DNA of 48,370 nt. Origin: Bdellovibrionota bacterium FG-2. Its GTDB lineage: Bacteria > Bdellovibrionota > UBA1018. Where the stretch lies: positions 1 through 48,370 of the forward strand of contig JBBCAV010000317.1 of NCBI GenBank assembly GCA_051382305.1, given 5' to 3'. The notes below the pieces were generated by a model. It worked only from the letters and a program-made list of their open reading frames with translations, ran no database searches and was not told the origin of the DNA. Both the position numbers and the translations under genes were made by a program. Each line of letters begins with the position of its first letter. Within the stretch, counting starts at the first letter, position 1. Below, in pieces: positions 6,200-45,306 of the stretch.

Positions 6200-7243
6200 A
6201 TGCAAAAGAAACTACTTCTGGAAGCCATCTATCGAAGAAACACCGCGCGTCCGCCGGTTTGGTTTATGCGGCAAGCGGGACGCTATCACTCCCATTATCA
6301 GTCGTTGAAGAAAAACTTCACTTTTGTCGACCTCTGTAAGCTACCTAAGATCGCCTGTGAAACGACGATGGGTCCCATTCGGGATTTTGATTTCGATGCA
6401 GCGATTCTTTTCTCGGATATTTTGTTTCCCTTGGAAGTGATGGGAATGGGTCTCAAGTACGAAGAAGGTCCAAAACTGGATTGGCATTTGAACACCTTAA
6501 AAGACGCTGAAAAATTGCAGGGCGGCGCTGCAAAAGTGAAGGAACTTGGTTATCAAGGTGAGGCGATGGCCTTGATTCGCAAAGAGCTCCCCGCGGAGAA
6601 GGCGCTCTTAGGATTTGTTGGCGGTCCCCTCACGCTGTTTTGTTATGCGGTTGAAGGCAGCCATCAAGGCGTCTTGGAATCGTCCCGAGCAGGCATGCAC
6701 GACGGCAGATATCATGCTTTTATAGACAAGCTTCACGACCTTTTAGTCGCAAATATGGTGATGCAAGCGCGCTCGGGCGCGGATGCGGTCGCGATCTTCG
6801 ACACTTGTGCCGGAGAATTTGATCCTGCCATTTATCGGGCGCATGTGGTGCCCGAGTTGAAGCGACTCATGGAAGCTGTTCGCAAACAGTGTCCTGAAAC
6901 ACCTATTATTTATTATTCCAAGAAAACGACGCCCGAATATTGGAGAATGCTTCGTGGGTTGCCTTTTGATGTTTTGGGAGTGGATTGGAATCAAGATTTG
7001 GTCGAGGTACTTCGGGAATTCGGCAAAGAATGGGCGATTCAGGGAAATATCGACCCGCACTGGCTGTTCTTGCCGGCCGCCGAGCTGGAGGATAAGTTGC
7101 GCGAGCGATTCACGGCGGTGCTTGAGCTAGGTCCCGAAATGCGCAAGGGTTGGATTTGCGGGTTAGGCCACGGGGTGCTTCCGAAAACGCCGGAAGAAAA
7201 CGTCAGACTATTTATTCGTCTACAGCGCGAGATGTTCAAATGA
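6200..7243 (+). CDS. hemE: Uroporphyrinogen decarboxylase
   Basis: PVWFMRQAGRY, DAAILFSDIL, QGNIDP, LGHGVLP. Alternative start 6185. Confidence 0.95.
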   Translation: MQKKLLLEAIYRRNTARPPVWFMRQAGRYHSHYQSLKKNFTFVDLCKLPKIACETTMGPIRDFDFDAAILFSDILFPLEVMGMGLKYEEGPKLDWHLNTLKDAEKLQGGAAKVKELGYQGEAMALIRKELPAEKALLGFVGGPLTLFCYAVEGSHQGVLESSRAGMHDGRYHAFIDKLHDLLVANMVMQARSGADAVAIFDTCAGEFDPAIYRAHVVPELKRLMEAVRKQCPETPIIYYSKKTTPEYWRMLRGLPFDVLGVDWNQDLVEVLREFGKEWAIQGNIDPHWLFLPAAELEDKLRERFTAVLELGPEMRKGWICGLGHGVLPKTPEENVRLFIRLQREMFK

Positions 7244-8622
7244 ATATTTCTCAGCTTCTTGAAAAATACAATGTCCCCGGACCTCGTTACACGAGTTATC
7301 CGACCGTCCCCTATTGGGAAACGAGCCCCACTGAGGATCAGTGGATTTCAAGCGTTGCGCGATCCATTGAAGAAAATGAGCATAAAGGCGTGGGTGCGGC
7401 ACTTTATGTTCACATCCCGTTTTGTCGCGCGCTTTGTACCTACTGCGGATGTAACACGCGCGTAACGCGAAGTCGGGGTGTGGTGGAGCCCTATATCAAG
7501 ACGTTGATTAAGGAATGGGATTATACCCTGGGCCGCTTGGGCAGACTGCCGGGATCAGGGCCTTCGTTGAGTTTAACGGAGTTCCATATGGGCGGAGGTA
7601 CGCCCACATTTTTGGAGCCCGCCGAGTTAGAGATGTTGCTTGATGGCTTGTTTTCTAAGGTGAAACTCAATGCAGAGCACGAGTACTCCTTTGAAGCCGA
7701 TCCGCGCGTGACGACGAAAGAGCAGATTGCGGTGTTTCGAAAGTTTGGGTTTCGTAGAATCAGTTTAGGAATTCAAGACTTTGATCCAAAAGTTCAAGAC
7801 ATTGTTCATCGCGTTCAATCCGAAGAAGAGGTTCGGCGCGTAACGGATGATGCGCGAGAGCTTGGGTATACTGGGATTAATTACGATTTGATTTATGGGC
7901 TTCCTTTTCAGACCGTGAAGAGCATCGAAGACACGATGGAGATTGTGTGCCGATTACGTCCGGACCGAATCGCGTTCTACGGCTATGCGCATGTCCCGTG
8001 GATTAAGCCCGGGCAGCGCAGGTTTACTGAAGATGATCTACCTTCGCCCGACGCAAAACGCGCGCTTTATGAGACGGGGCGCAAACTGTTAGCTGAAAAT
8101 GGATATCGCGAAATTGGGATGGATCACTTTGCGCTTGAGAGCGATTCGCTTTGGAAGTCGTGCGTGGAAGGAAAACTCCACAGGAATTTCATGGGATATA
8201 TTTCACGGCAGGTCGCGCCCTTGATTGGTCTCGGGGTTTCGTCCATTGGCGATAGCTGGGATGTTTTCTCGCAAAATGAAAAATTGGTTGAAACCTACAT
8301 GGCGCGTGTTGAAAAAGGAGAACTCCCGATTCACCGAGGCCACGTGCTTGATGAAGAGGATAAGGTTTTAAGGCGGCACATTCTCAATATCATGACCCGC
8401 TTCAAAACAGATTGGTCGGATCCGTCTCTTCAAACCGAGTATTTTATGTCGGTTGCTGAGCGACTCACGGAGTTTGTCCGTGACGGTTTAATGGAGGTGG
8501 GCGCGAACTCGTGTGTGGTGAAGCCCGCAGGGATTCCGTTTTTGCGAAATATCTGCATGGCTTTTGATGCACGATTAACCCGTAAAGCGCCTTCGACGAA
8601 ACTCTTTAGTCGAACAATTTAG
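7240..8622 (+). CDS. hemN: Oxygen-independent coproporphyrinogen III oxidase (radical SAM)
   Basis: GPRYTSYPT, YVHIPFCxxxCxYCGC, GGGTPT, HRNFMGY. ATGA overlap with the hemE stop. Confidence 0.95.
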   Translation: MNISQLLEKYNVPGPRYTSYPTVPYWETSPTEDQWISSVARSIEENEHKGVGAALYVHIPFCRALCTYCGCNTRVTRSRGVVEPYIKTLIKEWDYTLGRLGRLPGSGPSLSLTEFHMGGGTPTFLEPAELEMLLDGLFSKVKLNAEHEYSFEADPRVTTKEQIAVFRKFGFRRISLGIQDFDPKVQDIVHRVQSEEEVRRVTDDARELGYTGINYDLIYGLPFQTVKSIEDTMEIVCRLRPDRIAFYGYAHVPWIKPGQRRFTEDDLPSPDAKRALYETGRKLLAENGYREIGMDHFALESDSLWKSCVEGKLHRNFMGYISRQVAPLIGLGVSSIGDSWDVFSQNEKLVETYMARVEKGELPIHRGHVLDEEDKVLRRHILNIMTRFKTDWSDPSLQTEYFMSVAERLTEFVRDGLMEVGANSCVVKPAGIPFLRNICMAFDARLTRKAPSTKLFSRTI

Positions 8623-42499: not shown

Positions 42500-42698
42500 G
42501 TCCGGCTAGTGGCCATTTAGGCCGAAAACTGGATTCCAGTGCCATTTGGAAAATACCAAACCAAGCGCCCTCTTCGTGAGTGTTACCTTCGGTTAATGCT
42601 GTGCCCGAAGCCTCCTCACGTTTATCTTAAGTAGGATTCGACAAGATTAACTAGAAAATCCAAAATCCTGAATAAGACGCAGAGTGTTCAGGTATTTT

Positions 42699-44626
42699 GG
42701 TAGGTAGGCGGCGCACCTTACGGCGGCCGCCCCCATTAAAACCGGACTGGCGGTTTTCCCGCATCCGGCTTCCTCACTGACACGCTCGAGGGCTTATCGC
42801 CCTTTCGCCTCAAACAAAGAACAAGTTCCTCATGTGAGGATGATTTGGAAAACCGAGTTTCTCCAGGACTTCACCAAGACGCTTCCACGTGATGCTTCTC
42901 TTCTGGCTTCGCCGATTCAGCCACTTAAAGAGCATGCGTCGCACTTCCCGAAGGAATTGTTTCGCACGCCTTTGGTTGTCATTCACGGCGAAGTAGTTGA
43001 GGTATCCACGTACCACTTGTGTGATACGCTTCAGCAGAGTTTTCTCGTGGCGGTGCTTTTTGATGTGGGCTTGAATCTCCGAGAGTTTCTTTCTGAAACG
43101 TTTCGGACATGTCCGCCTTTTGATGCGCCAGAAGTGCACAGCCGCTTTTCTGTTCCAAGCTGTTCCCCAAACATGCAGGAAACCGAGGAACACGAACGTG
43201 GGCATTCTGCGCCCCTGTTTTGCGTATCTTGCGGCCATTTTCTGCCCGCACGGTAGCACCTTTGTCTTGTCTTCGTTCATAGAGATCCCAAAGCTCTTCA
43301 GTCGTTCCGCGAGTCTCAGGCGAAACCTCTCGGCTTCACTCAGGTCTCGGAAAGTGAAGACCGCGTCGTCTGCGTATCGAACCAGCCGTGCGCCTCCACC
43401 CATTTCCTGGCTGTTAAGCCAGTGGAACCAGATATCCATCACGTAATGGAGATAGAGATTGGCGATGATCGGTGAGAGGATTGATCCTTGGGGGGACCCC
43501 ACCTCGTTGCGTTCGATCACGCCATCCGACTTAAGAGTTGGGGCCTGAATCATTTTGATGATGAGATGTAAGAATCTCTGATCTTCAATCTTGAGCTTAA
43601 GCAGCCGAATAAGCGGCTCATGCGGGATCGTGTTGAAATATTTCCGGAGATCAATCTCCAATATCGCTCCACAATCCTTGCTCTTGAGATTTCCCCCTAG
43701 TGCCACGAGTGCTGTATCGCATCCGCGTCTCGGGCGAAATCCGTGTGAGCAGTCCAAGAATATTGGTTCATAGATTCGTTCGAGAACTTGACGTAGAGCC
43801 TCCTGAACGATCTTGTCTTCGTGGCAAGAAATCGCCAGAGGGCGCGTACTCCCATCCGTTTTCGGAATCTCTACGATTCGCGATGCTTGTGGATGGTACG
43901 AGCCTCTGCGCACCTTCATCAGCAAATCCTTCAGATTTTGGTCGAGATTTTCCTCATAATCCTCCTTTGTCACTCCGTCTATGCCCACCGCTTTCGCTCC
44001 GTCCAGCGCATGATGGCACCGTCCCAGCATTTCTAGGTCAAGCAGATGTCCAAGATTATTGAACGTCGCTTTCCTATCCTGCCGGGATCTTTGTTCTACG
44101 CGGTCAAGTTTTGTGTGCAAGTTCGATTGGTCCCTATGCTGTGTGGACACGCCTTGTTTCCCTCTTCCGTTTGTTAGTTACTGAGAGACCTTCTCTCCAC
44201 AGGCGTTGACCTGCTTCTACGGTACTACGCTCCCTCCGTCATCTCGCGGCCCGTCCGGTACGCTTCGGATTTCCCCTTTGCCGTACCTTGACGACTTCAT
44301 GTCGAGGCCGCGAGACTTCCCGTGTTGACTGCAACATCTCTCCACGCCCGCAAGGCTCTTAGACCCCGCCGTGGCCCTACCCCTCGCTTAACGGGTCAGG
44401 CTGTAGGCTTCACTCAATAAACACTGTTTGGCCCCATTCCGGAATTTTAGAAACTGTCGGGGCTGAATCGCTTCAGGCTTACGCTTTCAAGCTGGCGTGG
44501 TTCGCTCCATACGCTTCGTGCTCCCGTCACCGGGATTGGTCACGCAATGTTCGCTACGACATGGTTTGCTCTCCTTTGTCTGCGGGACTTACACCCGCAA
44601 GATGTTGCGCCCTTGGCACGGCGCAC
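42699..44626 (-). mobile_element. Group II intron, probably bacterial class E, full length (3' end at 42699 or 42700)
   Basis: 5' end GTGCG at 44626. Domain V GAAGCCGGATGCGGGAAAACCGCCAGTCCGGTTTT at about 42738-42772. Domain VI hairpin with a bulged A, ending CCTAC(C). Internal RT ORF. Confidence 0.93.
42810..44150 (-). CDS. ltrA: Group II intron reverse transcriptase/maturase with no endonuclease domain
   Basis: IPKTDG.TRPL, EDKIVQ, SHGFRP, GSPQGSILSP, RYADD, and X domain GYLNYF…WLNRRSQK. Confidence 0.95.
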   Translation of the reverse strand: MSTQHRDQSNLHTKLDRVEQRSRQDRKATFNNLGHLLDLEMLGRCHHALDGAKAVGIDGVTKEDYEENLDQNLKDLLMKVRRGSYHPQASRIVEIPKTDGSTRPLAISCHEDKIVQEALRQVLERIYEPIFLDCSHGFRPRRGCDTALVALGGNLKSKDCGAILEIDLRKYFNTIPHEPLIRLLKLKIEDQRFLHLIIKMIQAPTLKSDGVIERNEVGSPQGSILSPIIANLYLHYVMDIWFHWLNSQEMGGGARLVRYADDAVFTFRDLSEAERFRLRLAERLKSFGISMNEDKTKVLPCGQKMAARYAKQGRRMPTFVFLGFLHVWGTAWNRKAAVHFWRIKRRTCPKRFRKKLSEIQAHIKKHRHEKTLLKRITQVVRGYLNYFAVNDNQRRAKQFLREVRRMLFKWLNRRSQKRSITWKRLGEVLEKLGFPNHPHMRNLFFV

Positions 44627-44763
44627 GTTTAAGTTTTTCTAGCCTGATCCGATAGCGGTAATAGATCTTCTTTCTATTATCGTCCATTTAGATCACCTCC
44701 TTTCTTTTTACGAAGAAGGGAGGTGGTTCCATCCACTCTGCTTGGTTTGGCGAGAGCCGCGAG

Positions 44764-44780
44764 AGCAAATTCGATACCAG
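44764..44780 (-). promoter_or_regulatory. Putative sigma54 promoter
   Basis: CTGGTATCGAATTTGCT with GG-N10-GC and TTGC. Predicted +1 near 44753, next to the 5' arm of the inverted repeat. Confidence 0.55.
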
Positions 44781-44949
44781 CAATTTACGCCATAAAAGAC
44801 TGCGTCGGTGTCTCAGAATCGGATTCGCTGGCTGAAAAATAGGCTAATAGGACCGCGCGAAACTCCCATTTCCTCAACGGTTATATACAACCCGGACGAC
44901 TATGCGCCTGCAAAAAAGCCCCCCCCCACAATTATCAAAAGGAGACAAC

Positions 44950-45208
44950 ATGGACTTAAAAAACTGGCATTACTATTTACGTTATCAACCGTACTTCTAA
45001 TGGGTTGCGCCACACTTCAAGGCGTCACTTCAGGACAAACAGGCTGTGATGAGGCCGACATCGAAATCATCAAAGACAGCGGAACCTCGTTCTTCAATGG
45101 TAGCCGCACTTGGATGGCTCGCTGTAAAAAAATAAAGAATTTGTCTGCAGCTCGTACAAAATAGAAAACAAAGGTGAAAATCTTTCCTGCAAAGAGCGCG
45201 TAAAATAG
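44950..45208 (+). pseudogene. Small Cys-rich lipoprotein with two poly-A frameshifts
   Basis: AAGGAG RBS before ATG 44950. Adding one A at each of A6 (44958-63) and A7 (45126-32) gives MDLKKLALLFTLSTVLLMG-CATLQ…GC…WMARCK.NKEFVC…LSCKERVK*. Confidence 0.6.
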
Positions 45209-45229: not shown

Positions 45230-45306
45230 TGGAGCGGGCAAAGGGGCTCGAACCCTCGACCTCAAGCTTGGGAAGCTCGCGCTCTAGCCAACTGAGCTAC
45301 GCCCGC
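45230..45306 (-). tRNA. tRNA-Gly (CCC)
   Basis: GCGGGCGTAGCTCAGTTGGCTAGAGCG…TTCCCAA…GGTTCGAGCCCCTTTGCCCGCTCCA: cloverleaf, T-loop GTTCGA, encoded CCA. Confidence 0.96.

Follow-up and report, generated by a model that had tools for sequence, protein, structure and literature searches.

Type I toxin-like genes are known mostly from culturable Proteobacteria and Firmicutes, and are systematically missed by annotation. Here we analyze a 48,370-nt stretch of DNA from Bdellovibrionota bacterium FG-2 (GenBank assembly GCA_051382305.1, contig JBBCAV010000317.1; hereafter "the window", meaning the whole stretch), in which a group II intron on the minus strand splits a small gene whose RNA would resemble the mRNAs of such toxins. 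The described type I toxins share two hallmarks, a primary transcript that cannot be translated and trapping of the Shine-Dalgarno (SD) sequence by an anti-SD sequence, and in the hok and aapA mRNAs a long-distance interaction of the 5′ end with the 3′ end is released by 3′ trimming (PMC6733600, Masachis et al., cited here and below in part). The general mechanism of sigma54 promoters and their bacterial enhancer-binding proteins (bEBPs), which also bears on this locus, is laid out in PMC3844500 and PMC4987338, likewise cited in part.

The window gene belongs to a chromosomal multi-copy gene family that, judged from sequence comparisons among the genomes searched, is confined to one order of Bdellovibrionota, bacteria of the predatory type. 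Each member is probably the mRNA of a membrane peptide, controlled by sigma54 and an activator and held in a translationally locked state similar to that of type I toxin mRNAs. We favor this interpretation, with moderate confidence, because the predicted architecture matches the type I hallmarks (PMC6733600, in part). The toxin-antitoxin label is used as an analogy, and toxicity is a prediction of it.

An intron-split member of a repeated gene family

A sequence-only reading of the window, made from its letters alone, had proposed that removal of the intron reassembles an unannotated, riboregulated small-peptide RNA with a sigma54-type promoter, paired ends, a sequestered SD, a small open reading frame (ORF) and a 3′ stem-loop. 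Each of these five elements is found on the minus strand where that reading placed it, and the locus is organized as follows, in window coordinates.

44810-44824, minus strand: tentative candidate site for an activator (enhancer-binding protein, EBP), palindrome GTCY-N7-RGAC; weak, with 7/8 specified bases, at position -49 and so outside the -90 to -63 interval
44764-44779, minus strand: sigma54-type promoter TGGTATCGAATTTGCT, TGGTAT-N5-TTGCT, with -24 GG and -12 GC in GG-N10-GC spacing
44751-44753, minus strand: predicted transcription start, 12-15 nt past the -12 GC and immediately before the 5′ arm of helix P1
44738-44751, minus strand: 5′ arm of P1, GCCAAACCAAGCAG, 14 pairs
44750-44740, minus strand: part of this arm, CCAAACCAAGC, the perfect complement of GCTTGGTTTGG at 42566-42556
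44691-44735, minus strand: hairpins P2 and P3 of the 5′ untranslated region (UTR); P2 is GTGG/CCAC in the window, and P3 is formed by the anti-SD CCACCTCCCTTCTT and the SD AAGAAAGGAGGTGATC
44728-44691, minus strand: SD hairpin, CCACCTCCCTTCTT paired with AAGAAAGGAGGTG; the SD AGAAAGGAGGTGATC has its end at 44691
44687-44685, minus strand: start codon ATG, opening MDDNRKKIYYRYRIRLEKLK, which runs to the intron 5′ end at 44626
44627-44687, minus strand: exon 1 of the small ORF, MDDNRKKIYYRYRIRLEKLK plus the first base of the next codon; contains the intron-binding sites IBS2 TAGAAA and IBS1 TAAAC
42699-44626, minus strand: group II intron, 1928 nt, GTGCG...CTACC, with a reverse transcriptase (RT)-maturase ORF at 44150-42810
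42622-42698, minus strand: exon 2, read in the family frame as QNT, then TGA (42690-42688) where the conserved Trp codon is expected, TLCVLFRILDFLVNLVESYLR, and TAA (42624-42622)
42575-42620, minus strand: 3′ domain, with the P7 stem CGTGAG (42620-42615)/CTCACG (42580-42575)
42606-42591, minus strand: loop GGGCACAGCATTAACC of the hairpin CTTCGG/CCGAAG inside P7, nearly invariant in the family
42555-42566, minus strand: 3′ arm of P1, GCTTGGTTTGGT, where family conservation ends

Used separately as DNA queries, the two exons each matched nine other places in the FG-2 genome (73-84% identity), and blastn with the joined exons recovered uninterrupted copies at C236:150-457 and C40:1843-1547, along with a C417 copy cut by a contig end. 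The two flanks represent one type of locus. A profile search of the same genome (nhmmer; assembly 85% complete) returned 21 hits, counted as ~14-15 loci. Three of these are intact and intron-less, three carry the intron (the window and the junctions C232/C244 and C414/C125), and the others are decayed through internal deletion (C329, C337), truncation (C76, C370, C119, C292) or an insertion sequence (IS)-like element (C342 with C293, C270). The IS-like element, with the end GTAAGCATTCAGTAAACCCGCG..., splits one copy into a 5′ part on C342 (~144-170) and a 3′ part on C293 (~237-387); both junctions lie at TTCTAGCG, the contigs break inside the element, and the element also adjoins another family copy at C270:~7118-7267.

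Beyond this genome, DNA matches were found in 11 of 41 related genomes; the sister species (G001) has 21 of them, G019 has 18 and G018 has 8. A peptide profile matched 23 of 401 sampled Bdellovibrionota genomes, all in five families of one order (15/57 genomes in f1, 4/7 in f2, 1/1 in f6, 1/1 in f9 and 1/17 in f10, with the FG-2 genome, G000 in f1, left out), and matched none in any other family of the 401 phylum genomes searched. Copies are 65-82% identical, genomes contain up to 17-21 matches, and G001:C132 is collinear, at 77% identity, with the C40 copy together with one flank. In several genomes members lie in tandem, ~390-450 nt apart: at L031:1076-1781, on G019:C12 (85.8-89.6 kb), on G019:C22 (72.2-73.2 kb) and on G001:C76 (15.7-16.4 kb).

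Public contigs that carry the family (28 loci) are labelled Oligoflexia, Bdellovibrionia, Bdellovibrionota, Bacteriovoracaceae, Bdellovibrio sp., "Deltaproteobacteria" metagenome-assembled genomes (MAGs) and one "Lysobacteraceae" MAG. The member on this last contig, which is 429 kb long, lies at L077:2846-3200; its 44-aa ORF is intact and its 5′ UTR contains an insertion of 35 nt. The contig label could reflect horizontal transfer, mis-binning or mislabelling. A search of viral contigs gave 226 pattern hits and no confirmed relatives, no relative was found on the plasmids searched, and Rfam 15 returned five matches to the intron-less member L002:120-480, all with E values of 2.3-7.5 and far under their gathering scores. 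In a library of 1.84 billion protein representatives, 80 matches were recovered at E ≤ 0.001, mostly 40-50 aa in length. The sequence-only reading had described the gene as invisible to ORF callers, which is correct only in part, as the public protein library contains 80 such peptide clusters, none of them named. As far as our literature searches reach, at the level of titles and abstracts, the family is undescribed.

RNA structure and coding potential of the family

Minimum free energy (MFE) folds of five diverse members converge on one common architecture, with an RNA of ~270 nt per member between its predicted ends. Promoter, structure and ORF counts were all taken from an alignment of 41 full-length members (A3). 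Over these, a 69-pair model is 87.6% paired, and both partners have changed in 36 of its pairs (157 cells); none of 500 shuffles reaches any of five structure measures, slid controls are 36.8-52.2% paired, and RNAalifold independently finds the terminal helix. For an mRNA, 36 compensatory pairs across 41 sequences constitute unusually clean RNA evidence.

The terminal helix P1, which joins the RNA ends, spans 14 bp with 97.6% of cells paired and double changes in 10 of its 14 pairs. It contains 70 G.U and 3 A.C cells, which points to selection on the sense RNA and not on DNA inverted repeats. This strand-specific signature bears on the alternative that the copies represent a non-autonomous element resembling miniature inverted-repeat transposable elements, with the 11-14-nt arms as terminal inverted repeats and the promoter motif and ORF incidental. 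Such an element would be multi-copy, with sharp conservation edges and an inverted repeat near both ends, as seen here, and the copies do carry other mobile elements (the intron and the IS-like element). The 5′ arm, however, is not terminal, since the promoter is found at least 12-15 nt beyond it, with the palindrome at a still greater distance, and nine internal helices and the ORF are conserved in addition to the covarying arms. The degree of identity among copies is not that of recent mobility, one copy is collinear with its flank in the sister species, and viral contigs and plasmids gave no matches. Taken together, we consider a mobile-element origin of the conserved features very improbable.

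Inside P1, the small hairpin P2 (GTAG/CTAC in the family) is 93.9% paired, and P3 locks the SD (81.7% paired, with double changes in 5 of 10 pairs). The 13-nt SD AAGGAGGTGATCC, near-perfect and conserved 5-8 nt ahead of the ATG, is predicted to be held in P3 by an anti-SD that lies upstream and is similar to the 16S 3′ tail. In helix P4, GAUCC and the AUG are joined to codons 11-14 (UCAUCGGAUC), P5 and P5a fold in mid-ORF, P6 is a pseudoknot-type pairing (GUCUU/AAGAC), and P7 and P7a form the 3′ domain. Its apical loop GGGUACAGCAUUAACC (A3 columns ~363-413) is nearly invariant in the 41 members, more so than the ORF. The window RNA, spliced in silico to 272 nt, folds at -88.8 kcal/mol (z = -6.05 relative to 200 dinucleotide shuffles) with its 5′ end paired to its 3′ end, and the corresponding values for the C236 copy are -96.3 kcal/mol and z = -5.53; in the predicted MFE folds of the family members, the C236 copy and the window copy alike, the SD is paired. 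Given the C.A mismatches on the anti-SD side of P3, the canonical 16S tail would be a better partner for the SD than the anti-SD of the RNA itself once GAUCC (P4) is freed. The comparisons show how the family is built and distributed, its conservation and covariation and the constraint on its coding sequence; we infer the transcript ends, sigma54 dependence, a translational lock in vivo, the activation step and toxicity.

The ORF is intact in 40 of the 41 members and encodes 38-51 aa, starting at ATG in 40 and GTG in one, and ending at TGA (26 members), TAA (10) or TAG (5). The consensus peptide, MKNNRxxYYxHRIxLEKLKQKTWxLxVLARxLFFLANLVDHYLRxx, combines a basic N-terminal half (MKNNR..YY.HRI.LEKLKQKTW) with a hydrophobic C-terminal half, and AlphaFold2 predicts one helix across residues 4-45 (predicted local distance difference test score, pLDDT, 82.4). 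By its sequence and predicted helix, the peptide would fall within the size and hydrophobicity range of type I toxins (<60 aa, membrane-type). Entropy is 0.95, 0.81 and 1.19 at the first, second and third codon positions, respectively, with the third position most variable.

These coding features weigh on a second alternative, in which the RNA is the product, either as a sigma54-dependent small RNA or as a dual-function RNA acting through the loop GGGUACAGCAUUAACC, and the ORF is secondary. A 3′ loop conserved above the coding sequence, an RNA structured over its whole length (z ~ -5.5 to -6) and a window copy that keeps its fold despite a nonsense codon would all be expected of a functional RNA. 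Nevertheless, the ORF remains intact in nearly every member at a synonymous divergence (dS) of ~1, with start and stop positions kept, variation concentrated at the third codon position and a near-perfect SD conserved ahead of the ATG, and a search of the FG-2 genome gave no target complementary to the loop. Because the ORF is conserved, a function of the RNA alone is unlikely, and we regard this alternative as quite improbable, preferring the locked peptide mRNA.

Intron-less homologues exist in which promoter, SD hairpin, ORF and terminal pairing are all kept, and the sequence-only reading therefore withstands the refutation check it had set. Covariation is seen in P1 and P3, with the 3′ stem included in the covarying model, and the intron-less copies support the proposal of an unannotated family of riboregulated small-peptide mRNAs; at the family level that interpretation is largely borne out.

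The window copy itself departs from this pattern. Its family frame reads ...LEKLKQNT and then TGA, at a codon that the sequence-only reading had suggested might be TGG or CGA elsewhere; it is TGG in the family, with Trp in 37 of 41 members. The exon 2 region (42622-42699) matches profile positions 20-45 with one TGA and one TAA inside, and past the TGA the window copy stays family-like up to the TAA at 42624-42622. Because the TGA (TGG to TGA) replaces the family Trp codon, this copy is nonsense-mutated and defective, an intron-split and decaying family member. With a nonsense codon in the family frame, splicing would therefore not give the full peptide from the window copy.

Sigma54-type promoter and upstream palindrome

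Sigma54 promoters have the consensus TGGCAC-N5-TTGCW and are silent without an activator ATPase. The conserved region sets in sharply with the -24 GG and extends as far as the last base of GGTTTGG(T). In the promoter columns (n = 41) the predominant bases are G 37, G 40, C 32, A 34 and Y 41, followed by five variable positions and then T 39, T 41, G 41, C 39 and T 36; the exact GG-N10-GC spacing is present in 35 of 41 members, and in those 35 members the distance from the GC to P1 is 12-15 nt. Because two invariant blocks, a free spacer and no covariation form the pattern of a protein-bound sigma54 promoter, we read the motif as sigma54-type, and the family promoter is likely sigma54-dependent. 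The FG-2 genome encodes rpoN (Sigma54_DBD, 219 bits, at C397) and contains 27 Sigma54_activat matches, 20 of them above 187 bits.

Upstream of the promoter, 7 of 41 members have a perfect copy of the palindrome GTCY-N7-RGAC, in every case at -84 to -63 relative to the GG; by comparison, 45 of 5000 random 300-nt genome windows contain it. With up to one mismatch allowed, 28 sites were found, 16 of them between -90 and -63 versus ~1 expected; similar motifs are also present downstream of some members. We take this palindrome to be a candidate enhancer-binding-protein site in a subset of members.

On the opposite strand of the window, an ORF at 44808-45164 (plus strand) contains a lipoprotein-type signal, KKLALLFTLSTVLLMGC, with no ATG, GTG or TTG near the signal and no Pfam match. 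Its only in-frame start, GTG 44808, overlaps the family promoter on the other strand, and either the start is unclear or the gene is damaged. A homopolymer of ~10-11 G on the minus strand (C on the plus strand) lies at ~44920-44931, between the family promoter region and this ORF. Elsewhere in the genome, a tandem 21-nt repeat, CCTGCACAACCGGGATCACCT, is located at G000:C131 ~53212-53275 (minus strand).

The group II intron and its niche

The intron in the window shows the 5′ end, domains D1-D6, RT-maturase and exon-binding sites (EBS) by which group II introns are recognized at the sequence level. Rfam models match domains D1-D4 at 44354-44591 (RF02005, 87.2 bits) and D5-D6 at 42694-42773 (RF00029, 45 bits), and the ORF at 44150-42810 contains RVT_1 (2.8e-28) and GIIM (9.9e-07) domains without an endonuclease domain. 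EBS2 (TTTCTA, intron positions 174-179) pairs with TAGAAA, and EBS1 (GTTTA, intron positions 205-209) pairs with TAAAC.

A C at both junctions leaves a one-base ambiguity in the boundaries, GTGCG...CTACC or CGTGCG...CTAC. The sequence-only reading had offered two frames for the 3′ exon; both exist as given, and the intron-less paralogues identify the frame set by the 42699 boundary as that of the family. Three observations favor the boundary 44626-42699: intron-less members read CTTAAGC followed, across the junction, by AAAAAACCTGG; the 3′ exons at C414 and C125 keep the family frame (QKTWIFF... and QKTWILF...) only with a single C retained; and the TAAAC paired with EBS1 finishes at that C. 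The other intron copies do not settle the boundary, as all carry ...CTACCA.

These other copies in the genome are 98-100% identical and located at contig ends, with further junctions inside family members at C232 and C244 (5′) and at C414 and C125 (3′). In at least three members of the FG-2 genome the insertion point falls in the LEKLK codons, the most conserved in the family, and the intron has specialized on a homing site made up of the nucleotides that the family conserves most (CTAGAAAAACTTAARC, codons LEKLK). Intron copies with different exon flanks are represented by a 3′ junction at C86 and by two loose ends in the source run (at 44629 and 42695); one of the other 5′ flanks opens with TATCGG, as in the family, and then diverges. 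In contigs built from the source run, word depth is ~77 over the intron versus 7-11 over the flanks, a ratio that is not a copy number. None of those contigs joins across the intron, and neither an intron-less allele nor a splice junction was observed among them.

Searches for the intron gave no match in the sister species G001, in G017, in G018 or in G036, and the sole intron-like match in G019 is an 84-nt, D5-D6-like piece; on this basis, the family is old and the intron a recent guest. Truncated family copies gave no Rfam matches in nine loci, i.e., no other introns. An empty-site check in the sister species found that the left flank stops at a contig end and that the right flank is preceded by other DNA without a family copy. 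This right flank begins at a tRNA gene in the window (45233-45306, minus strand; RF00005, 62.4 bits), exactly where sister-species synteny starts.

The earlier suggestion that expression depends on splicing can thus apply to the intron-bearing copies of the FG-2 genome, and does not extend to the sister species, with its 21 family DNA matches and no intron match. The locus offers a clear case of a group II intron inhabiting a repeated small-gene family, and we attribute the presence of multiple intron copies in one genome, undetected in the sister species, to this niche.

Proposed function and comparison with described systems

In the model we favor, each member would stay untranscribed unless an activator ATPase sets RNA polymerase-sigma54 going. 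The resulting primary transcript would be stable yet translationally inert, like the hok and aapA mRNAs, and would be unlocked by a further event, such as loss of P1 through 3′ trimming or disruption of P4. At that point the 16S tail could take the place of the mismatched anti-SD, allowing synthesis of a membrane-active, probably growth-inhibiting peptide. The requirement of sigma54 for an activator could replace an antitoxin as the safety device. We more tentatively envisage an antitoxin-less type-I-like class, in which ~15 RNA-locked paralogues would be kept silent by the strict requirement of sigma54 for an activator, in place of an antisense RNA, and co-fired by one EBP through GTCY-N7-RGAC, with the 3′ loop as trigger or processing site, the family as dedicated homing niche of the intron, and splicing as an additional lock on the copies that carry it; this wider proposal is possible but doubtful.

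Several results weigh against a locked toxin-type mRNA. P3 does not vary on its SD side, and C.A mismatches recur on its anti-SD side (55 C.A versus 18 G.U cells), an excess that simple selection on the sense RNA does not predict, and SD complementarity was judged against the canonical bacterial 16S tail, the 16S 3′ end of FG-2 itself not being in the assembly. No conserved intrinsic terminator follows P1, so the RNA 3′ end is a predicted one. No antisense antitoxin emerged: a scan of the opposite strand inside the element detected no conserved sigma70-type promoter, the best column showing a good match in 10% of the 41 members. A search for trans partners of the invariant 3′ loop, allowing up to two mismatches in 15 nt, found none in the 85%-complete genome, the two outside sites being weak. 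The palindrome, even with one mismatch allowed, is lacking in 18 of 41 members and in most FG-2 copies. A median ratio of nonsynonymous to synonymous substitution rates (dN/dS) of 0.43 (684 pairs, median dS 1.0) indicates moderate constraint only. No known toxin family is resembled, with no Pfam or NCBIfam family for three of four peptides and sub-threshold noise for the fourth (DUF5345, 15.2 bits with a cut-off of 27; MerC, 13.3 bits with a cut-off of 170), and the nearest named Atlas cluster, TisB, scores 0.76, under the lead level.

The main rival is a harmless small membrane protein, for instance one that regulates or stabilizes a transporter or sensor, within the regulon of one sigma54 activator, its RNA fold serving stability and dosage. 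MgtS, MgrB and AcrZ are examples of such small regulatory membrane proteins. No antitoxin RNA emerged from the scans, sigma54 and its activator alone would give a tight off-state, at least one copy is kept at one locus in two species, and the predicted peptide fold is simply one helix. Genes for regulatory proteins of this sort usually exist as single copies, whereas this family is multi-copy, arranged in part in tandem arrays and rich in decayed copies, and its SD, AUG and RNA ends are all sequestered with covariation, as in toxin mRNAs. We therefore rate a harmless regulator as a serious but rather unlikely explanation, and retain the toxin-like mRNA as the more probable one.

If correct, this interpretation would extend type I toxin-like genes to Bdellovibrionota. 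We know of no sigma54-driven type-I-toxin-like gene, and a scheme in which toxic small peptides are gated transcriptionally by sigma54 plus an activator, whether this replaces an antisense RNA or adds to one, did not turn up in the literature searched. In titles and the openings of abstracts, type I toxins and sigma54 were co-mentioned only incidentally, and nothing relevant was found on type I toxin-antitoxin systems of Bdellovibrio, on group II introns with type I systems, or on sigma54-dependent toxic small proteins. The promoter, RNA and peptide of the family could enter RNA and protein family libraries.

Among described systems, the window intron is like bacterial group II introns that encode an RT-maturase without an endonuclease domain in its 5′ GTGCG, its Rfam D1-D4 and D5-D6 matches, its RVT_1 and GIIM domains and its EBS/IBS pairing. 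It differs in its niche, which is a set of repeated small-peptide genes and not an IS element, terminator or housekeeping gene. Group II introns usually end in ...AY, unlike the ...CTACC predicted here, unless the 5′ end is CGTGCG. The promoter shares with known sigma54/bEBP promoters the GG-N10-GC spacing, the near-invariant GG and TGC, a genome with rpoN and ~20 activator genes, and, in a subset of members, a candidate upstream site, palindromic and at a fixed distance; GTCY-N7-RGAC has no known activator assigned to it.

The closest mRNA-level comparison is with aapA/IsoA of Helicobacter pylori, in which several chromosomal copies likewise encode a small toxic-type peptide, the mRNA combines a 5′-3′ interaction with SD/anti-SD hairpins that carry compensatory changes, and activation occurs by 3′ trimming (PMC6733600, in part). 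The family has no sequence similarity to aapA/IsoA, encodes a longer peptide from a sigma54-type promoter, and holds its SD by an adjacent upstream anti-SD, the end pairing itself leaving the SD uncovered; no antisense IsoA-like RNA was found for it in the sigma70-type promoter scan. The type I toxin-antitoxin label proposed in the sequence-only reading is thus upheld by analogy for the mRNA architecture (PMC6733600, in part) and not for an antisense antitoxin.

With hok/sok, known from the E. coli plasmid R1 and from chromosomal loci, the family shares a single-helix membrane peptide of ~50 aa and an end fold-back that would render the full-length mRNA inert (PMC6733600, in part). It differs in having a sigma54-type promoter and in showing no Hok/Gef Pfam match, no mok-like leader ORF, no Sok-like antisense RNA and no copies on the plasmids searched. 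The hok loci also exist in multiple chromosomal copies, many of them decayed or broken by insertion elements, a feature that they share with the family described here.

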